Assembly (NCBI GenBank): GCA_018376135.1
Contig: JAHABX010000008.1
Location: forward strand, 29,793-93,792
Direction of reading: 5' to 3'
Origin: Clostridiales bacterium
GTDB taxonomy: Bacteria; Bacillota; Clostridia; Lachnospirales; Lachnospiraceae
DNA length: 64,000 nucleotides
Numbering within the stretch: the stretch's first letter is position 1; the number at the start of each line of letters is the position of its first letter. Shown here piece by piece: positions 2 through 12,236 of this stretch. The notes below the pieces were generated by a model, which was given only the letters and a program-made list of their open reading frames with translations, made no database searches and was not told the DNA's origin. The position numbers and the translations under genes are program-made.

Positions 2-268
2 TATCTGATCCATGACCATTACCTGATCCGGTATCTGGTATGGGACACTTTCAGGGCAAGCAAGGTGGCGCGTACCCATTGGGCTGTGATCTATACCGTG
101 GGGATCGGGATCGTCGTGTACCTGATCTGTACCTGCCTGGAGCTGATTCGGCAGAAGCTGTTTGTCTTACTGGAAAAACCGTATAAAACGACACTATTAT
201 ATAAGAAGGAACAGCAATTTTGCGATTACTTGAATCAGATATTCAAAGATTCAGAAAAGTCCGCTTGA
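2..268 (+). CDS. C-terminal fragment of a hydrophobic (membrane) protein; the ORF is open from the window edge
   Basis: The reading frame is open from nt 2 to the stop at 266-268, so the tracked 65..268 ORF is only the tail. The hydrophobic stretch IYTVGIGIVVYLICTCL suggests a membrane segment. No family recognised. Confidence 0.35.
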   Translation, partial: YLIHDHYLIRYLVWDTFRASKVARTHWAVIYTVGIGIVVYLICTCLELIRQKLFVLLEKPYKTTLLYKKEQQFCDYLNQIFKDSEKSA

Positions 269-287
269 CAAAAGCGGGCTTTTTTGC
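257..287 (+). terminator. rho-independent terminator
   Basis: Hairpin CCGCTT-gacaa-AAGCGG followed by a T6 run, overlapping the stop codon. Confidence 0.6.
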
Positions 288-304
288 TATTATTTTTATC
301 AATG

Positions 305-600
305 AAATAAGTAAATGCGTTGAAGAGGAATAGTACATTCAGACTTGAATTCAGAGAGCTGTCGGGTGGTGTGAGACAGCAGAGAGGATGTCTGGAACTC
401 GCCTCCGAGCGGCTGTCCCAAATCTTCCCTGAGGGAGGAGAGTAGACACAGACGGGGTTCCTGCCGTTACCAAGGGAAGGATATAAGAATCGTATCCGTA
501 AGGTGTGTGAAGTCATTCATGAATTAGAGTGGTACCGCGTAAGGCAGTAGTCTTTCGTCTCTAAAGCTGAGAAGCTGTTAGGAGATGAAGGGCTTTTTTT
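305..600 (+). promoter_or_regulatory. T-box leader (likely Leu-specific) controlling leuA
   Basis: Conserved T-box sequence AATTAGAGTGGTACCGCG at ~522-539. An upstream stem-I region contains GAA-CUC-G, a candidate Leu CUC specifier at ~404. A terminator hairpin plus T8 run lies at ~565-598, 70 nt before leuA. Confidence 0.75.
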
Positions 601-2568: not shown

Positions 2569-3246
2569 ATGCGTAGATGCTACCGGGGTGCGGCACTTGT
2601 ACTTGGGGGAATCCTCATGACAGGTATCACATCCTTCAACTCCTGCAGTATCGGTTCCTTGACCGTATATGCTGCAGAGGACATACCGGCTGAAGAACTG
2701 GAGACAGCATTTCAGGAGGAAGTCCAGACAGGGGAAGAAAACGTCGAAACAGAAATACAGGCAGAAGAAATGCCGGCACCTGAGGAAGTGACGGAAGAAC
2801 CGGTTCAGGCGGTGGAGGAACCAGTTCCGACGGCAGAGGAACCGACGCAGGCAGTTGGCACAAGTTTTAGTTTGGAGGAACAGGAGTATCAGGTACTCCT
2901 CAAAATAGTAGAAGCAGAAGCCGGGTGTGAGGACACCGCAGGTAAGATGCTGGTGGCGAATGTGGTTATGAACCGCGTCCGGAGCGCCCATTTTCCGAAT
3001 TCAGTTTATGAAGTGGTCTACCAGAGACATGAAGGAAGAGCACAGTTTTCCCCGATTGATGACGGAAGAATCGACACGGTCAGTGTGTCTGCGGACACCG
3101 TAGAGGCTGTTGCCAGGGTAATGAACGGAGAAGACAGCTCCGCAGGGGCGTTGTTCTTCCGGGCTGCAAGCTGTAACAGCAGATGGTTTGATCAGGCGCT
3201 GACGCGGGTGATCGAGCACGGCAATCACATTTTTTATACCATGTAG
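2569..3246 (+). CDS. secreted cell-wall hydrolase (SleB-like, Hydrolase_2 family) with an acidic E/P-rich linker
   Basis: Signal peptide, an EE/PE-rich low-complexity linker, and a C-terminal domain with VANVVMNRV...FPNSVYEVV...QFSP typical of SleB-like spore cortex/cell-wall hydrolases. Confidence 0.7.
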   Translation: MRRCYRGAALVLGGILMTGITSFNSCSIGSLTVYAAEDIPAEELETAFQEEVQTGEENVETEIQAEEMPAPEEVTEEPVQAVEEPVPTAEEPTQAVGTSFSLEEQEYQVLLKIVEAEAGCEDTAGKMLVANVVMNRVRSAHFPNSVYEVVYQRHEGRAQFSPIDDGRIDTVSVSADTVEAVARVMNGEDSSAGALFFRAASCNSRWFDQALTRVIEHGNHIFYTM

Positions 3247-3381: not shown

Positions 3382-4875
3382 ATGGAATTGTTATATAAGA
3401 GTACAAGAGGCGGCGAGGAAGCAGTCACTGCATCCAGAGCGATTCTTCAGGGACTTGCCCACGATGGCGGACTGTTTGTGCCGGACAGGATTCCAGAACT
3501 GGATCTGTCCATGGAGCAGCTTTCCGGTATGTCTTATCAGGAAACTGCATACGAAGTGATGAAGCTGTTCCTGACAGATTTTACAGAAGAGGAGCTGAAG
3601 AACTGTATCAGCCGCGCATATGATGAGAAGTTTGATACGGAAGTGATCGCACCGCTGGCAAAGGCAGACGGTGCTTACTATCTGGAGCTTTTTCACGGAG
3701 CTACCATTGCGTTTAAGGATATGGCGCTTTCCATCCTGCCGCATCTGATGACGACCGCAGCGAAGAAGAATCAGATCAGCAATGAGATCGTGATCCTGAC
3801 AGCTACTTCGGGAGATACGGGCAAGGCTGCCCTTGCCGGTTTTGCAGATGTGCCCGGAACCAGGATCATTGTATTCTATCCGAAGAACGGTGTCAGCCCG
3901 GTACAGGAGAAGCAGATGGTGACCCAGAAGGGTGACAATACGTTTGTTGTGGGTATTAAGGGAAATTTTGATGACGCACAGAGTGGTGTGAAGGCAATTT
4001 TCGGAGATCAGATTCTGGAGCGCGATCTTGCGGAGGCAGGCTTCCAGTTTTCCAGCGCCAATTCCATTAATATCGGGCGTCTGGTTCCTCAGATTGTATA
4101 TTATGTATATGCCTGTGCAAAGCTTCTGGAGAGCGGTGAGCTCTCAGAGGGCGAGAAGATGAATGTGGTAGTGCCTACCGGAAACTTCGGAAATATTCTG
4201 GCGGCATATTACGCAAAGCAGATGGGAGTACCGATTGCAAAGCTGATCTGTGCATCCAATGACAATAAAGTATTGTATGATTTCTTCCAGACCGGAACCT
4301 ATGACCGGAACCGTCCGTTCATTCTGACGACTTCTCCGTCCATGGATATTCTGATCTCCAGCAATCTGGAGCGTCTTCTTTACCGTATTGCAGGAGGAGA
4401 TGCAGGCAAGGATGTGGAGCTGATGGACGCGCTGTCCAGGGAGGGCAGCTACCGGATCACTCCGGAGATGAAGGAACAGCTTCAGGATTTCTGCGGCTAT
4501 TATGCAACCGAGGCAGAAGCGGCAGAAGCGATCCGGAAGGTATATGAGGATACCGGCTACGTGCTGGATACTCATACGGCAGTTGCAGCCTGTGCTTATA
4601 AGAAGTATGTGGCAGAGACAGGCGATGAGGCGAAGACGGTGATCGCCTCTACAGCAAGCCCGTATAAGTTCACCAGAAGTGTTATGGATGCCATTGACAG
4701 TGAGAAATATGACAGTATGACAGATTTTGAACTGATCGATGAGCTGTCCAGAATCTCCGGTGTGGAAGTGCCGAAGGCGATCGAGGAGATCCGTACGGCT
4801 CCTGTACGTCACAGAAATATCTGTGAGGTGAAGGATATGAAGAAGACGGTCAGAGAGTTTCTCGGTGTAGAATAG
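3382..4875 (+). CDS. thrC: threonine synthase
   Basis: N-terminal ELLYKSTRG...GGLFVPD hallmark and PLP-fold motifs. 497 aa. Confidence 0.9.
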   Translation: MELLYKSTRGGEEAVTASRAILQGLAHDGGLFVPDRIPELDLSMEQLSGMSYQETAYEVMKLFLTDFTEEELKNCISRAYDEKFDTEVIAPLAKADGAYYLELFHGATIAFKDMALSILPHLMTTAAKKNQISNEIVILTATSGDTGKAALAGFADVPGTRIIVFYPKNGVSPVQEKQMVTQKGDNTFVVGIKGNFDDAQSGVKAIFGDQILERDLAEAGFQFSSANSINIGRLVPQIVYYVYACAKLLESGELSEGEKMNVVVPTGNFGNILAAYYAKQMGVPIAKLICASNDNKVLYDFFQTGTYDRNRPFILTTSPSMDILISSNLERLLYRIAGGDAGKDVELMDALSREGSYRITPEMKEQLQDFCGYYATEAEAAEAIRKVYEDTGYVLDTHTAVAACAYKKYVAETGDEAKTVIASTASPYKFTRSVMDAIDSEKYDSMTDFELIDELSRISGVEVPKAIEEIRTAPVRHRNICEVKDMKKTVREFLGVE

Positions 4876-5328: not shown

Positions 5329-7035
5329 ATGTCAACAAAAGCGTACTATCCGCTGAGCGAAATCGGCAAGGGTAAGCCTGGTTTTTCCAAAACCCGTTCT
5401 ATTATTGAAGCTGCATTCTATGGCAACAATGTAGTAAAGGTTAACACCTTGAAAGAAGCTTACGAATTAGCAAAGAACTCTCCGGGAACGATCGTAACTG
5501 ATATGCCTGTATACAGAGGCGAAGAGTTCGGTCTTGAGAAAGATGCAAAAGTTCTTCTGTTCAACGACGGTGCAGTAACCGGACGTTACGCAGCAGCTCG
5601 CCGTATCAAGGGCGAACCGGGTGTGGATGAAGTTAAGCTTGATAAAATTGTTATGGATGCTGTATACGAGGCTCGTTGGAAAACCATGTATCATGCAACC
5701 TGTTTCGTAGGTCTTGATCCTGAATTTATGGTAAAAGCTCACCTTCTGATTCCGGAAGGAGAGGAAAATCTTCTTTACAACTGGATGATCAACTTCCAGT
5801 ATATGTCTGACGAATATGTAAAGATGTACAAGAATTCCCAGCCGATCGGTGATGGCAAGGAAGCAGATATCTACATCTTCTCCGATCCGCAGTGGGCTCC
5901 GCATGATGCTCCGGACCTGGATTACAGCTGCCTGAGCGATCCGCTGACTCTGTGCTACTTCGATACCAACGAGAACTGCGCAGCAATTCTTGGTATGAAA
6001 TATTTTGGTGAGCACAAGAAGGGTACTCTGACCATGGCGTGGGCACTGGCTAACAGAAATGGTTATGCAAGCTGCCACGGCGGACAGAAAGAGTATACTT
6101 TAGCAGATGGAAGCAAATACGTTGCATCCGTATTCGGTCTGTCCGGATCCGGTAAGTCTACTCTGACCCATGCAAAGCACGGCGGAAAATATCCGATCAC
6201 CGTACTTCATGATGATGCATTTATTATCAATACTGAGACCTGTTCTTCTGTAGCTCTTGAGCCGACTTACTTTGACAAGACTGCAGATTATCCAACCGGA
6301 TGCCCGGACAACCAGTATCTGTTATCTGCACAGAACTGCTCCGCTACTCTGGATGAGAACGGACATATTCAGCTTGTAACTGAGGATATCAGAAATGGTA
6401 ACGGTCGTGCGATCAAATCCAAACTGTGGTCCCCGAACCGCGTAGATAAGATTGACGCTCCTGTAAACGCAATCTTCTGGATCATGAAAGACCCGACCAT
6501 TCCGCCGGTAGTAAAACTGAAAGGTGCTGCACTTGCATCTGTTATGGGTGCAACTCTGGCTACCAAGACCTCTACTGCAGAGCGTGTTGCAGCCGGTACC
6601 GACCTGAATGCACTTCGTATCGTACCTTACGCTAACCCGTTCAGAACCTATCCGCTGGTTCATGACTATGATAAGTTCAAGAAGCTGGTTGATGAGAAGA
6701 ACGTAGACTGCTATATTGTTAATACTGGTGACTTCATGGGTCAGAAGGTTAAACCTGCTGATACACTTGGAATCCTTGAGACCATCGTTGAAGGCAAAGC
6801 TTCCTTCGAAAAATGGGGTCCGTTTGAGGATATCGAGATCATGAACGACTGGTCCGGCAAGACTGCAGACTTTACTCCGAACCTGCAGGACGCTGATTAT
6901 GTTGCAGCTCTGAAGAGCGCTATGCAGAACCGTGTAGATGCAGTTGCTAAATTCGCTACCGCTAAAGATGGTTATGACAAACTTCCGGATGAGGCTCTTG
7001 CAGCTCTCCAGAAACTGGTTGACGAATTAGCCTAA
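5329..7035 (+). CDS. pckA: phosphoenolpyruvate carboxykinase (ATP)
   Basis: Kinase-1a loop GLSGSGKSTL and PckA-family conservation throughout. The start at M10 of the tracked ORF is preferred because TAAGGAGGA sits 8 nt upstream. Confidence 0.9.
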   Translation: MSTKAYYPLSEIGKGKPGFSKTRSIIEAAFYGNNVVKVNTLKEAYELAKNSPGTIVTDMPVYRGEEFGLEKDAKVLLFNDGAVTGRYAAARRIKGEPGVDEVKLDKIVMDAVYEARWKTMYHATCFVGLDPEFMVKAHLLIPEGEENLLYNWMINFQYMSDEYVKMYKNSQPIGDGKEADIYIFSDPQWAPHDAPDLDYSCLSDPLTLCYFDTNENCAAILGMKYFGEHKKGTLTMAWALANRNGYASCHGGQKEYTLADGSKYVASVFGLSGSGKSTLTHAKHGGKYPITVLHDDAFIINTETCSSVALEPTYFDKTADYPTGCPDNQYLLSAQNCSATLDENGHIQLVTEDIRNGNGRAIKSKLWSPNRVDKIDAPVNAIFWIMKDPTIPPVVKLKGAALASVMGATLATKTSTAERVAAGTDLNALRIVPYANPFRTYPLVHDYDKFKKLVDEKNVDCYIVNTGDFMGQKVKPADTLGILETIVEGKASFEKWGPFEDIEIMNDWSGKTADFTPNLQDADYVAALKSAMQNRVDAVAKFATAKDGYDKLPDEALAALQKLVDELA

Positions 7036-7054
7036 TTCTGAGACATTATAAGGG

Positions 7055-7082
7055 CATCGCATATTGCGATGCCCTTTTACTG
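7055..7082 (+). terminator. rho-independent terminator after pckA
   Basis: GGGCATCGCA-tatt-GCGATGCCC followed by TTTTAC. Confidence 0.65.
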
Positions 7083-7156
7083 TAAAAAAACCTCTGTTTT
7101 CTGATGGGGTAAATCTTAAAGTATGTGGGGAATATATGTATAAGGAGGGGCATACA

Positions 7157-7918
7157 ATGAAACATGGAAAATTTGTACTGGAAACTTGTGCGGACAGCCC
7201 GGAATCTGCAATCGCAGCAGAAAAGGGAGGCGCAGATCGTCTGGAGATGTGCGGTCATCTGATCATTGGCGGTGTTACACCGGATGAGTGGCTGTACAGA
7301 GAGATACGCCGGGTGTGCAGCCTTCCGGTCCGTGTACTGATTCGTCCCAGATTCGGAGATTTCTGTTACAGCCGGCATGAATTTGAGATAATCCAGAATC
7401 AGGTGAAGCATTTCCGTGAATTGGGTGCGGATGCGGTGGTGATCGGCTGCCTTACTCCTGAGGGAAATCTGGATATGGATAAGATGGGACGGCTGACGGA
7501 GCTTGCCGGTGGTATGGAGATCACACTTCACCGTGCCTTTGATGTATGCAGGGATCCTTTTGAAGCTATGGAACAGGCGATTTCTCTGGGGATCGGAACA
7601 ATCCTCACTTCCGGTCAGGAAAGCAGCAGTCTGAAGGGACAGGAATGTCTGAAGAAGCTTCAGGAGCAGGCAGAAGGCAGGATCACCATTATGGCAGGAG
7701 CCGGCGTGAATGCGGAGGCAATCGAGAAGCTGTATCCGCTTACGGGAATTTGTGCTTATCATATGTCCGGCAAGAAGGTAGAGCCGTCCGTTATGCAGTA
7801 TCGAAAGGAAGGCGTGCCTATGGGACTTCCCGGGATCAGTGAGTTCGAGATCTGGAGAACAGAGGAGGAGGCAGTTAAGAAAGCTTCTGAAGTATTAGAA
7901 AGATTTTCAGGTACTTGA
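7157..7918 (+). CDS. cutC: copper homeostasis protein CutC family
   Basis: MKHGKFVLETCADSPESAIAAEKGGADRLEMC and the ~250-aa length match CutC. RBS AAGGAGGGG precedes M32 of the tracked ORF. Confidence 0.75.
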   Translation: MKHGKFVLETCADSPESAIAAEKGGADRLEMCGHLIIGGVTPDEWLYREIRRVCSLPVRVLIRPRFGDFCYSRHEFEIIQNQVKHFRELGADAVVIGCLTPEGNLDMDKMGRLTELAGGMEITLHRAFDVCRDPFEAMEQAISLGIGTILTSGQESSSLKGQECLKKLQEQAEGRITIMAGAGVNAEAIEKLYPLTGICAYHMSGKKVEPSVMQYRKEGVPMGLPGISEFEIWRTEEEAVKKASEVLERFSGT

Positions 7919-7959
7919 AAATATTAGAAGAAGTTTTTGAGCGCTGCAGTTGTCAAAAT

Positions 7960-8222
7960 CGATAAAATAGGTTATACTATGGTTACAGATTTCCTGGGGT
8001 GTTCGAGAGCCCTGTTATTTTGAACCTACATTTACGTTTATGGGATTCCAATATTTCAGGCGGGATGTCATGCCTCCATCCGTAAGGATGTCAGTGGAAG
8101 GCTGAAAGCCTGTTGAGGTTACCCACCTAGCTCTGGCTAGGCGTCAAAATACAGGGAACGGCACTTTGGGAAAGAGAAAGATACCGGGTATTGCATAAGC
8201 TGCAATGCCCGTTTTTTTTCGC
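7960..8222 (+). ncRNA. unclassified structured leader / ncRNA candidate ending in an intrinsic terminator, upstream of spoIID
   Basis: No coding potential. Several short GNRA-capped hairpins (CATCC-GTAA-GGATG, GGCT-GAAA-GCC, CCTAGC-TCTG-GCTAGG) and a T-loop-like GGGGT-GTTCGAG-AGCCC. It ends with the terminator at 8181-8222, only ~32 nt before the spoIID start codon. Confidence 0.3.
8181..8222 (+). terminator. rho-independent terminator
   Basis: GGGTATTGCA-taagc-TGCAATGCCC followed by T8. Confidence 0.65.
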
Positions 8223-8253
8223 AGGCAGCAGAGGTGACAGGGAGGGGGAAAGG

Positions 8254-9564
8254 ATGTATCAGAGAAGACTGAAGCATAAGGCGGTTCTTTTGCTGTGCAT
8301 GATGATATTTCTGGGGATACTGATTACCAAAGGAAAGCTTGAGGAATCTGGTGACGGCGAGGAAGGTGAGCGGCTTGTGATCCCGGAGACGGAAATACCG
8401 TCGGACGGTCCCAGGGAGGTCTGGCAGCTTCCGGGGGAGGATGCAGATATTCGGGTGCTGATCCTGAATGATCAGGGAAGTATGTATCATGAGGATAAGG
8501 AGCTTAAGAAGGAATATCCGGGAGAACTCCATTATTATGAGGAAGAGCAGGGATGGGTCATCATTAATGAACTTCCGCTGGAGGAATATCTGTGCCGGGT
8601 CGTGCCCAGTGAGATGCCGTCAGCTTATGCGGAAGAGGCATTGAAAGCGCAGGCGGTATGTGCGAGGACCTATGCAGTATGGCAGATGCGGGAATATGCG
8701 TATCCGGAGTATGAAGCGCATGTGGATGACAGTGTGTCGTTTCAGGTATACAATCATATCGAAAGCCAGGAGTCTACGGATAAAGCGGTGGAAGCCACAA
8801 GAGGACAGATTATGCTGTATGAGGACCTGCCGGTGAAGGCATATTATTTTGCAACCTCCTGTGGAAGCACTACGAATGAACAGATATGGGAAGAAGGCGA
8901 TGCAGCCCGGACTCCGTATATTGCATATCGGAGTGTAAATACTTCAGACACATCCAGGGACCTGACAGATGAGGAGACATTCTCTGCTTACATAAAGAAG
9001 AAGCATGCCGGTGATCTGGAGATCGGGGAGCCATGGTATCGCTGGAGCTGCTATGTTTCATTGGAGCAGATCCGGAAGAATGTGGAGAAATGGGCAGATA
9101 TCCGGGCGGAGAAGAGTGAAGACGGGATCCTTATGCAGGATGGAGAGGACTACATAAAGGAGCTTCAGGATATCGGTGAGGTAAAGGGCGCACAGATCAT
9201 AAATCGTAATGCAGGGGGCGCGGTACAGGAGCTTCTGATCCATGGAGAGGACGGCTGCATGAAAGTGAAGTATGAATATAATATTCGCCTGATGCTGGGG
9301 ATTCCCGGCGGAGAGATCCAAAAAAATGACGGGACTCTGGGAGAGGGAGGCAGTCTTCTGCCAAGCGGGTATTTTGTGCTGGAGCCGGTAGAAGAGAAAG
9401 GGGAGCTGGCAGGCTATCAGGTAACTGGCGGCGGACTGGGGCATGGCGCAGGTATGAGCCAGAACGGAGCAAGACTTCTTGCAGAGCAGGGCTGTGGTTA
9501 TGAGGAGATTCTTCAATATTTTTATAAAGGGATACGGCTTGCAAGATTGGGAGAAAAAGAGTAA
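8254..9564 (+). CDS. spoIID: stage II sporulation protein D (SpoIID/LytB domain)
   Basis: Signal/TM segment, then SpoIID/LytB-domain motifs (EEYLCRVVPSEMP...AQAVCARTYA, C-terminal GHGAGMSQNGA). RBS GGGAGGGGG. Confidence 0.8.
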   Translation: MYQRRLKHKAVLLLCMMIFLGILITKGKLEESGDGEEGERLVIPETEIPSDGPREVWQLPGEDADIRVLILNDQGSMYHEDKELKKEYPGELHYYEEEQGWVIINELPLEEYLCRVVPSEMPSAYAEEALKAQAVCARTYAVWQMREYAYPEYEAHVDDSVSFQVYNHIESQESTDKAVEATRGQIMLYEDLPVKAYYFATSCGSTTNEQIWEEGDAARTPYIAYRSVNTSDTSRDLTDEETFSAYIKKKHAGDLEIGEPWYRWSCYVSLEQIRKNVEKWADIRAEKSEDGILMQDGEDYIKELQDIGEVKGAQIINRNAGGAVQELLIHGEDGCMKVKYEYNIRLMLGIPGGEIQKNDGTLGEGGSLLPSGYFVLEPVEEKGELAGYQVTGGGLGHGAGMSQNGARLLAEQGCGYEEILQYFYKGIRLARLGEKE

Positions 9565-9601
9565 GATATTACATTAGCAGATACGAGGGATGGTTAAGAA
9601 T

Positions 9602-10417
9602 ATGATTCGATGGATCGCGGCAGGGATTGATATGAAACGGGATATGGAAAAGAGCCATGTGGGAGCTTTCGCTGCCCAGTCGGCTTATTTTATCATGCTT
9701 TCTTTCCTGCCGCTTACCATCATGCTCCTGACGCTGATTCAGTATACGGGTATCGGGAAGGCAGATCTGTACGGGCTGATTCAGAATCTTGTGCCCCTTG
9801 GATTCCAGAGCTGGCTGATCGGGATCATCAATGAGATGTACAGCCGTACGGCTGCCACCATATCTGTTTCGGCGCTGGTAACGGCATGGTCGGCAGGAAA
9901 GAGCTTTATGGCGCTGAATAAGGGGATGAATGCGATCTGCGGGGTGGAGAAGAACCCTAATTATATACTGATGCGTCTGAGGGGAGCTTTTTTTGCACTG
10001 ATATTTGTAGTGCTGCTTCTCATATCACTGGTATTGATCGTGTTCGGACATTCCATCCATGAACTGATCACCAGATATTTTCCGCTCATTGCGATCTTCA
10101 CAAGGGTGATCCTGTCCTTCCGGCTGGTACTGATGCTGGCATTGTTCATTCTGTTTTTTGCGGTTCTTTATCTGGTGCTTCCCAATAGAAAGGCAGGATT
10201 TGCAGAACAGCTTCCGGGTGCAGTATTTGCGGCAGTAGGATGGTATTTGTTTTCCTATGGTTTTTCCATCTATATTGAGTACAGCAATGCATTCAATATG
10301 TATGGAAGCCTGACTACATTGGTCCTGCTTATGTTCTGGCTGTATTTTGTCATGTACATTGTGCTGATCGGTATGGAGATCAATGAGTGGCTGTCCATGT
10401 ACGGAAAATTGGCTTGA
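9602..10417 (+). CDS. YihY/BrkB (virulence factor BrkB) family membrane protein
   Basis: Family-typical N-terminus (AFAAQSAYFIMLSFLPL), 6 TM segments, RBS GAGGGATGG. Confidence 0.7.
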   Translation: MIRWIAAGIDMKRDMEKSHVGAFAAQSAYFIMLSFLPLTIMLLTLIQYTGIGKADLYGLIQNLVPLGFQSWLIGIINEMYSRTAATISVSALVTAWSAGKSFMALNKGMNAICGVEKNPNYILMRLRGAFFALIFVVLLLISLVLIVFGHSIHELITRYFPLIAIFTRVILSFRLVLMLALFILFFAVLYLVLPNRKAGFAEQLPGAVFAAVGWYLFSYGFSIYIEYSNAFNMYGSLTTLVLLMFWLYFVMYIVLIGMEINEWLSMYGKLA

Positions 10418-10472: not shown

Positions 10473-12236
10473 ATGATGATGAAAAAGAGAAGCAGAGTCC
10501 TGCTTTTACTGGCAGCTTCCCTGATGCTTTTGCTGGTGGCATTAGAAAGTCCTGAAAGGGCAGAGGCTATGGAGCAGATGGATGATATTATCCCTTCCCT
10601 GGAGGAAGCCTTCTGTGAGGGGGACCTGGAGCTGGAGCTGTCCAGCAGAGGGGAATATCCAATTTATTATACACTGGATGGGAGTATTCCCACCTTGGAC
10701 AGTATATTCTATGAAGGGGCAGTCACCCTGCCGGCTTCCGGGGAGGTTCAGTCCTGTGTCGTAAGGGCGCGTACTTATGATGAAAATACAGGAGTGTGGG
10801 GAGATCTGTTTACCCGCACTTATTTCTATGCCCGGGAGATGGAGACGATCCTGGATCGGTTCAATACCTATATTGTCTGCCTGACCAGCGATCCTTATAA
10901 TCTGTATGATTATGAGTATGGCATTATGGTGGAGGGAAAGATTCGGGATGAATACCGCGCCAGTGAGGAGTACATATCCGGCAAGCTGACCCAGCCTGCG
11001 AACTTTACCCAGGAAGGGCGTGAATGGGAGCGGGACGTATTTGTGGAGATCCTGTCCCCCAAGGGAGAGACCCTGGTTGCCCAGAATGCGGGGATGCGCA
11101 TATTCGGACATGCCAGCCGCCAGTATTATTACAAATCCTTCAAGCTGTATGCGAGAGAGGAATATGGACCGGAGAGCTTTGCCTATCCCTTCTTCCCGGA
11201 TAATATGCCCGGAGACGGGAACGAGGTACAGGAATCCTATGAACGTCTGGTGGTGCGTGCCCATGGTTTTGATAAAAGTGTGACCATGTTCCGGGAGGAG
11301 CTGTTCCAGCGTCTGTGCAGTCAGATTGAGGGGATCGATACCAAATCGGTTGCGCCGGCATCTGTCTGGCTGAATGGAGCTTATTACAATTTTGAATGGC
11401 TTCAGGAGGTGTATGATGACCGCTATATGGAGGAAAATTATGGTCTGCAGCAGATGAACGATTCCTATCGGACCGTGACGCTCAGGGCAGATCGGCCGAC
11501 GACCAGTGTACCGCCGGGATCAGAAGAGGAAGTGATCAAATTTACCGGGACAGGAGGAGAAGAGGCAGAGGTTCAGATCTCGGATCCGGAGGATGTACAG
11601 GCAGCCAGTGATTATGAACGGGTGGCAGCGTATGCCGAGAAGAATCTGACGGATGACAGAGTATTTGAAGAACTGTGCGGGCTGGTGGATTTGGAAAACA
11701 TGCTGCAGTATTTTGCGGTGGAGACTTATATCGGCAACTGGGACTGGCCGCTGAATAATGTAAAGCTGTACCGTTATTATTCATCGTCGAATACATATGG
11801 GGAAGACCGGCAGGACGGAAGGTGGAGATATCTCTATTATGATATGGAGGCCGGTTTTAATATCTTTAACGAACCGGAGGAAGAATGGCTGTCCATTGAG
11901 CAGGTTATGGAAGAAAGTTCTTTGTTTGGCGCGGTCATGAAGCGAGAGGATATGCAGAAGCGGTTTGTCTATTATCTCAGCCTGTGTGCCAATGAGTATT
12001 TTACAGAAGAGAAGGTCCGGGCAGCCGTAGAACAGCTCCGGTCCGAACGGGATCAGGAGTTATCCGCCAGCCTTTCATATAAACAGAGTATTGACGAGAC
12101 CTATACCCTGAATATGGATGAGGTGAATGAAAATATCCTGAGGATCTATGAATTTGTGGAGAAGCGTCCACAGATCATAAAGGATGAAGTACAGGCGCTG
12201 TTCGGAATGGATATGGCGCTGACAGAAGACAGATGA
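10473..12236 (+). CDS. secreted CotH family protein with an N-terminal chitobiase/hexosaminidase C-terminal-like (Fn3-like) domain
   Basis: Signal peptide. [11 protein letters not shown] motif of the CHB_HEX_C domain. The rest resembles CotH kinase-like spore coat proteins (GNWDWPLNN). Confidence 0.6.

Follow-up and report, generated by a model that had tools for sequence, protein, structure and literature searches.

We analyzed a 64-kb window of an uncultured Lachnospiraceae genome (the window being the whole stretch of DNA under analysis), in which cutC and a gene for a SpoIID/LytB-domain protein lie on the same strand, 335 nt apart. As an initial annotation had noted, this gap of about 335 nt lacks coding potential, and no open reading frame of ≥30 amino acids lies wholly inside it. 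That annotation placed an unassigned structured RNA of ~260 nt at 7960–8253 and interpreted it as a cis-acting leader of the downstream gene, either a riboswitch or an attenuator, rather than an independent small RNA. What the gap holds is a 6S RNA gene with a promoter of the sigma-A/sigma-70 type and an intrinsic terminator, followed by a short spacer and then by the SpoIID/LytB-domain gene and yihY (Table 1). The RNA is smaller than proposed, with a core of 189 nt and a primary transcript of ~232 nt; the interval 7960–8253 also includes the −10 box of the 6S promoter at one end and, at the other, the ribosome-binding site that precedes the SpoIID/LytB-domain gene.

The gene downstream of the gap had been labelled spoIID. 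Its product passes the model for the SpoIID/LytB domain (TIGR02669, 181 bits versus 83.3), and its best solved relatives are the SpoIID structures 4RWR and 5I1T, but with the spore_II_D equivalog model TIGR02870 it reaches 127.1 bits, below the cutoff of 234.75. An NCBI entry from a Clostridiales MAG, named 'SpoIID/LytB domain-containing protein', has the identical sequence. The label spoIID is not secured, and 'SpoIID-like' is the defensible name for the product of 8254–9564. Near the locus lie genes for a SleB-type cell-wall hydrolase (Pfam Hydrolase_2; 2569–3246, +) and a CotH kinase (10473–12236, +), which points to a spore-forming organism with a loose cluster of sporulation genes in this region. 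Together with the sigma-E-type promoters found in relatives, these neighboring SleB-like and CotH genes support a putative sporulation role of the SpoIID-like gene.

Other features of the window include a T-box leader (RF00230, 111.9 bits; 311–565, +) directly upstream of an open reading frame (671–2329, +) for a 2-isopropylmalate synthase of the LeuA type with HMGL-like, IPMS_D2 and LeuA_dimer domains; the T-box is presumably leucine-specific. Upstream of cutC, behind a PEPCK-like gene that ends at 7035, a perfect 10-bp hairpin (GGGCATCGCA-TAT-TGCGATGCCC) followed by TTTT lies at 7050–7078 (+). It is probably the terminator of the PEPCK-like gene, though it was not flagged by the terminator scan. 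No sigma-70-like promoter was found between this hairpin and cutC.

Table 1 Features of the 6S RNA locus and their positions in the window
Feature	Position	Strand	Details
Sigma-E-type promoter-like motif	7130–7158	+	GAATATA-N14-CATACAAT; −10 overlaps cutC start codon (ATG 7157)
cutC (copper homeostasis, CutC family)	7157–7918	+	Pfam CutC, 3.9e-67; ATG 7157, ribosome-binding site AAGGAGG 7142–7148
Sigma-A/sigma-70-type 6S promoter	7950–7978	+	−35 TTGTCA 7950–7955, 17-nt spacer, −10 TATACT 7973–7978
6S RNA (SsrS) core	7988–8176	+	189 nt, Rfam RF00013
6S closing stem, 5′ strand	7993–8005 and 8010–8023	+	Includes the 'T-arm-like' GGGGTGTTCGAGAGCCC; pairs with 8144–8170
Invariant block AUUUUGAACCUACA	8017–8030	+	Top of closing stem into 5′ side of central bulge; 44/44 sequences
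Apical hairpin	8077–8090	+	CAUCC-GUAA-GGAUG (GNRA tetraloop); compensatory changes in close clade
3′-side bulge hairpin	8126–8141	+	CCUAGC-UCU-GGCUAGG; RNAalifold helix, 7 pairs, 98% paired
6S closing stem, 3′ strand	8144–8170	+	Alignment consensus
Intrinsic terminator	8185–8219	+	11-bp stem 8185–8211, ~−16.7 kcal/mol; T8 8212–8219; A-rich tract before
Spacer with ribosome-binding site GGGAGGGGG (8240–8248)	8220–8253	+	34 nt, T-run to ATG 8254; no promoter motif
SpoIID/LytB-domain protein ('SpoIID-like')	8254–9564	+	436 aa; Pfam SpoIID, 4e-29
YihY/BrkB-family membrane protein	9590–10417	+	Next gene after SpoIID-like in most relatives

The structured element is a 6S RNA

Scanning the whole window with Rfam at the gathering threshold returned two matches, the T-box at 311–565 and 6S RNA (RF00013, SsrS) at 7988–8176 (+). 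The 6S match reached 63.8 bits, where the gathering score is 46.4 (E = 2.8e-10), and was full length, covering model positions 1–187 of 187. At 189 nt, the RNA falls within the 180–192 nt seen in relatives and the ~180–200 nt expected of the family. A permissive Rfam scan (E ≤ 1) of 7850–8350 revealed no family besides 6S, including no riboswitch or other cis-regulatory family; the genuine T-box was readily picked up by the same Rfam scan that gave no leader family here. Furthermore, the segment 7980–8220 folds with a minimum free energy of −88.2 kcal/mol (z = −4.84), and 0 of 200 shuffled sequences were as stable. 6S RNA acts in trans and is abundant; it imitates an open promoter, associates with the housekeeping holoenzyme of RNA polymerase and is the template from which short product RNAs (pRNAs) are made. 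Both RNA polymerase binding and pRNA templating by the RNA from 7988–8176 are predicted from its membership in the 6S family.

The structure was derived from 44 aligned 6S sequences of the Lachnospiraceae loci described below, with the consensus computed by RNAalifold. This consensus shows the textbook 6S architecture: a closing stem, a largely unpaired central region, a 3′-side hairpin and an apical stem. The closing stem comprises 24 pairs that are ~99% paired in the 44 sequences, with compensatory changes at five of them (for example, A-U replacing G-C in 16 sequences and U-A replacing C-G in 17); sliding the partner columns as a control left just 34–55% of cells paired. Over all helices, including the apical hairpin, 97.7% of cells in the 44 sequences were paired versus 34–54% with slid partner columns. 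Double-sided changes occurred at eight pairs (61 cells), and the observed values were reached by at most 3 of 500 shuffles. The central bulge is almost wholly unpaired (alignment columns 38–80), and a hairpin equivalent to the one on its 3′ side has been described in Bacillus subtilis 6S-1 and in lactic acid bacteria (PMC8414754). The apical hairpin, a GNRA-type hairpin of the kind that the initial annotation had pointed out, changes from CG to UA and from GC to AU within the close clade; 81% of its cells pair overall, the alignment to the distant clade being poor there.

A further element had been likened to a tRNA T-arm. Its string, GGGGTGTTCGAGAGCCC, is present at 7996–8012, but the tRNA-like interpretation was rejected: ARAGORN finds no gene in 7800–8400, and covariation shows that the two halves of the string each pair with the 3′ end of the RNA and not with each other. 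In the model alignment, the GUGUUCG within it corresponds to the conserved 5′ closing-stem motif of 6S RNAs. The invariant block that follows, AUUUUGAACCUACA, is by analogy the likely template region for pRNA, a template role for product RNA being known of 6S RNAs (PMC3753640, PMC10117727).

Model score, length, covarying closing stem, central bulge with a 3′ hairpin and apical stem-loop are all those of a 6S RNA. The Rfam scan and the covariation check of related loci that had been suggested as follow-up both give 6S RNA, not a leader, and the full-length match assigns the formerly unassigned RNA to an already known family that a standard tool detects, which makes this a routine annotation. 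Its value lies in taking away a false riboswitch candidate, a question that an Rfam scan would have settled.

Promoter and terminator of the 6S RNA gene

In the promoter upstream of the 6S core, 10 of 12 positions agree with the consensus; its end lies 9 nt short of position 1 of the RF00013 model, so that transcription is expected to start at ~7985–7988. Its boxes (gTTGTCAAA ... AAATAGGTTATACT) are identical in the window and all 32 close relatives, and most of the distant relatives have TTGTAA/TATAAT. At the other end, the strong intrinsic terminator recognized earlier is borne out by an 11-bp stem and a run of eight T, with 34 nt to the ATG where ~32 had been given. A terminator occupies the equivalent position behind the 6S gene in 50/50 loci analyzed. 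Promoter and terminator together delimit a stand-alone unit from the expected start to the T-run, and discrete transcription of 6S RNA from its own promoter is predicted from these conserved motifs. Thus, 7988–8176 (+) encodes 6S RNA as a normal stand-alone gene, not a riboswitch or attenuator, a reading to which we assign a probability of about 0.9. No observation speaks against the assignment to 6S RNA.

A highly structured RNA that ends in a terminator 34 nt before an ATG, with no promoter in between, does resemble a cis-acting leader of the SpoIID-like gene, that is, a riboswitch or attenuator whose terminator would be switched by a ligand or an alternative fold. We regard such a leader as highly improbable. 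The full-length 6S match covers the whole structured part, no leader family appears there at E ≤ 1, and a conserved sigma-A-type promoter belonging to the element lies immediately upstream. The terminator has a stem distinct from the covarying closing stem of 6S, and its hairpin is predicted to form with a probability of 0.84–1.00 in all tested transcripts, long and short. No leader-dependent antiterminator or other alternative pairing was predicted, including in transcripts from the sigma-E-type motif upstream of the 6S gene. The earlier preference for a leader over an independent small RNA is therefore reversed by a full-length 6S RNA with its own conserved promoter and terminator.

Conservation of the locus across Lachnospiraceae

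An alignment-based search of species-representative genomes yielded 65 Lachnospiraceae loci. In 58 of the 65, Rfam detects a full-length 6S RNA immediately ahead of the SpoIID-family gene and on its strand, and in these loci promoter, 6S and terminator recur together. Seven loci lack a 6S match, six of which have <800 nt of upstream sequence. Locus L035 (3462 nt) has 1.5 kb upstream and no 6S at the gathering threshold, reflecting either a divergent 6S or broken linkage. The pairing of 6S RNA with a gene related to sporulation is thus conserved across Lachnospiraceae, and the two are possibly co-transcribed. A literature search on 6S RNA with spoIID returned nothing relevant, and Barrick et al. 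2005 might cover 6S synteny in Clostridia.

The upstream neighbor of the 6S gene varies among these loci, and the SpoIID-like gene and yihY follow downstream in most. cutC precedes the 6S gene in just eight close relatives, and the others keep an in-frame deletion remnant of it. This remnant lies ~60–230 nt upstream of 6S (L001–L009, L011–L013, L015–L025, L030 and L032) and fuses the first codons of cutC (MKHGK) to the last (LSDFPEI*); its ribosome-binding site has decayed, and sigma-E-type boxes at the old start are retained. A small conserved open reading frame behind a CATACAATG motif in relatives was rejected as a gene, being this in-frame remnant with the ATG lost in two loci.

Further downstream, most relatives carry a T-box leader after yihY, ~900 nt downstream of the SpoIID-like gene (L001–L065). 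In the window, this T-box is absent and the CotH-family (spore-coat kinase) gene takes its position, so synteny breaks just after yihY. Two relatives hold additional RNA elements near the locus. In L010, Clostridiales-1 RNA (RF01699, 118 bits), which we take to be a small RNA without known function, lies just after a T-box, at 4615–4773 (+). In L027 (Clostridiaceae bacterium Marseille-Q4145), group II intron domains (RF02001, 131 bits; RF01998, 55 bits) are found at 32–335 (+), ~2.4 kb upstream of the 6S gene.

Sigma-E-type promoter motifs on either side of the 6S RNA gene

In Clostridioides difficile, spoIID is sigma-E-dependent, and sigma-E promoters combine an ATA −35 box with a CATA-type −10 box (PMC3789822). 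We scanned the loci for an ATA-type −35 box, a 14-nt spacer and a CATACAnT −10 box, a consensus from Bacillus and C. difficile that may not be this organism's own. In nine distant relatives (Dorea, Faecalicatena and related genera), near-perfect matches to this sigma-E-type promoter lie between the terminator and the SpoIID-like gene, as in TCATAGA-14-CATACATT; the −10 box stops 30–35 nt short of the start codon in eight of these relatives and 60 nt short of it in L060. A promoter that intervenes at this point uncouples the element from the gene, which again argues against a cis-acting leader. The initial annotation had named, as the observations that would speak against its leader, an Rfam match to a housekeeping small RNA with its own promoter together with a separate promoter downstream; the former is present here as 6S RNA, and the latter occurs only in distant relatives, where both observations come together, and not in the window.

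The spacer between the T-run and the SpoIID-like gene had been judged too short for a promoter. This holds for the window, whose 34-nt spacer contains no promoter motif, and for its close relatives. A search for sigma-70-like promoters from the terminator to the ATG of the SpoIID-like gene gave none, the spacer is not conserved in relatives beyond the ribosome-binding site, and it measures ≤45 nt in 21/50 loci and merely 19 nt in some. From the 3′ end of 6S to the ATG, the best sigma-E-type score in the window was 8.25 of 12.25; over the same stretch, the window and 31 of 32 close relatives gave best scores of 7.25–9.25 of 12.25, versus 8.85 ± 0.63 for shuffled sequence. Most of these background-level scores use the terminator hairpin, variable loop included, or the A-rich linker just before it. 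Boxes resembling those of sigma-K, sigma-F or sigma-G, placed by eye at the terminator region, did not fit.

These scores bear on whether 6S and the SpoIID-like gene are separate units, the gene having an unrecognized promoter in the 6S 3′ end or terminator and its transcripts starting in or after the hairpin. Such an arrangement has some appeal, in that the terminator seems too strong for easy read-through and the linker and the stem of the terminator (AAGATACCGGGTAT...) show more sequence conservation than a hairpin would require. Promoter and terminator do overlap in two distant relatives: in L060 (~744–780) and L051 (~2434–2470), the loop of the 6S terminator holds a sigma-E-type −35 box (TCGTATA), and the T-run is immediately followed by the −10 box (CATACATT or CATATAAT), so that promoter and terminator would share the same DNA. 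Nevertheless, we consider separate units unlikely, because neither visual inspection nor scanning placed a box pair resembling those of sigma-A, -E, -K, -F or -G there in the window or its clade; the site with the best sigma-E-type score draws on the variable loop; the stretch from the T-run to the ribosome-binding site is not conserved; and a conserved sigma-E-type promoter motif lies upstream instead.

This upstream motif, at 7130–7158, is the sole perfect match to [GT][AC]ATA[AT][AT]-N14-CATACA[ACT]T on both strands of the window (128 kb of strand); shuffled 400-nt stretches score ≥11 in 0.3% of trials. A second sigma-E-type match (minus strand, 20433) lacks an ATA box, lies inside a plus-strand open reading frame, is probably due to chance and was rejected. 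In the close clade, the upstream motif is perfect or near-perfect and on the same strand as 6S. It sits at the cutC start where cutC is present and 63–229 nt before 6S in 24 loci without cutC. Of 31 close relatives, 29 retain the two boxes with their 14-nt spacing, and the spacer and upstream sequence have diverged. Because boxes and exact spacing are kept over a randomized spacer, the conservation pattern is promoter-like, and we infer from it that 7130–7158 may act as a sigma-E-type promoter.

The conservation might instead reflect nothing but a cutC translation start or its remnant, with 7130–7158 not a promoter and the SpoIID-like gene served by leakage from the 6S promoter or poorly expressed. 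In loci with cutC, the 14-nt 'spacer' is indeed the ribosome-binding site of cutC, whose ATG falls within the '−10' box, and partial conservation extends to the 15 nt downstream (GAAGCATGGAAAAGC), as would be expected of a recent remnant. We judge this explanation quite unlikely. In the 24 loci without cutC, the ATA and CATAcAAT boxes persist with a spacing of exactly 14 nt, in spite of a decayed ribosome-binding site, an ATG lost in two loci, and randomized spacer and upstream sequence. Against it also stand the uniqueness of this perfect match to the consensus in the 128 kb of strand that was scanned and the presence of such a motif directly upstream of the orthologous gene in distant relatives.

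Predicted read-through into the SpoIID-like gene

With a spacer free of promoter motifs and, in the window's clade, a sigma-E-type motif only upstream of 6S, we lean slightly toward the view that the SpoIID-like gene of this clade has no promoter of its own and is expressed by read-through of the 6S terminator. The locus would then comprise, in order, the sigma-E-type promoter, cutC or its remnant, the sigma-A promoter, 6S, the terminator, the SpoIID-like gene and yihY. Polymerase from the 6S promoter, from the sigma-E-type motif at 7130–7158 or from both would pass the 6S terminator into the downstream genes, and the 6S gene would form part of the 5′ leader of a sporulation transcript made in the mother cell, much as ssrS is part of the ygfA leader. 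Transcription of the SpoIID-like gene through the element, as the initial annotation had proposed, thus remains the most likely layout given a spacer without promoter motifs, whereas the leader or attenuator role attached to it does not hold.

Several observations weigh against read-through. The terminator is canonical and strong, with an 11-bp stem, T8 and −16.7 kcal/mol, and is not weaker than those of the clade with a downstream promoter; across the clade that would need read-through, weaker terminators were not seen in this comparison, except for a TTTC-type tract in the L017–L025 subclade. In addition, the modeled hairpin probability of ≥0.84 in long and short transcripts gives no sign of an antiterminator. 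In the window, moreover, the −10 box of the upstream motif overlaps the cutC ATG, so that a transcript from it would carry a ~1.1-kb leader that includes an untranslated cutC.

A more specific proposal is that the 6S gene is nested in a sigma-E-driven sporulation unit that starts at the CATACAAT promoter, with the terminator passed to express the SpoIID-like engulfment hydrolase; we hold this nesting to be possible but on the doubtful side. If true, the production of 6S RNA, an RNA that sequesters the sigma-A polymerase, would be tied to gene expression in the mother cell. The 6S terminator would become a set-point for a sporulation gene, and the relatives with a sigma-E-type promoter downstream would represent the uncoupled state.

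The locus also has comparative value, as the linkage of 6S RNA to a SpoIID-family gene and yihY is tight and directional across Lachnospiraceae, with the sigma-E-type motif upstream of 6S in one clade and downstream in another. To our knowledge, a link between 6S RNA and sporulation is so far known solely from phenotypes in Bacillus. If real, read-through would provide a testable link of this kind.

Comparison with known systems

The 6S RNA described here is like 6S-1 (bsrA) of Bacillus subtilis and the 6S RNA of C. difficile in its full-length model match, its length of ~190 nt and its structure (PMC8414754, PMC10117727). It shares with them a housekeeping-type promoter, an intrinsic terminator and an invariant 5′-bulge sequence at the expected pRNA start. 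Nothing structural sets it apart from known 6S RNAs, its source being an uncultured Lachnospiraceae genome. For the C. difficile RNA, also from Clostridia, both RNA polymerase binding and pRNA synthesis have been shown (PMC10117727). The neighborhood differs: rarA and upsA are the neighbors in lactic acid bacteria and B. subtilis (PMC8414754), whereas a SpoIID-family gene and yihY are found here.

Terminator riboswitches and T-box leaders resemble the locus in combining a structured RNA with an intrinsic terminator shortly before a start codon. They differ from it in that the element here matches none of their families, has no predicted antiterminator, carries its own promoter and is a member of a trans-acting family.

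A closer parallel exists in gamma-proteobacteria, where ssrS lies in the 5′ UTR of ygfA (PMC4064990). As in E. coli ssrS-ygfA, 6S is located directly upstream, on the same strand, of a gene without an obvious promoter, and the linkage is family-wide (58/65 loci here). The two systems may also share tandem promoters, a proximal housekeeping promoter and a distal one for an alternative sigma factor. However, the downstream gene here encodes a SpoIID/LytB-domain cell-wall hydrolase instead of a folate enzyme, a strong canonical terminator separates the two genes, the distal motif is of the sigma-E (mother-cell) type, and co-transcription is inferred. A Firmicutes precedent for a 6S RNA cut from a longer transcript is provided by ssrSA-ssrSB of Bacillus thuringiensis, two 6S RNAs that are co-transcribed and processed from a precursor, and 6S has been linked to sporulation efficiency in that organism (PMC7726162); the partner there is a second 6S RNA, whereas here it would be an mRNA. 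Should read-through be real, the Lachnospiraceae locus would constitute a Gram-positive, sporulation-linked counterpart of E. coli ssrS-ygfA.
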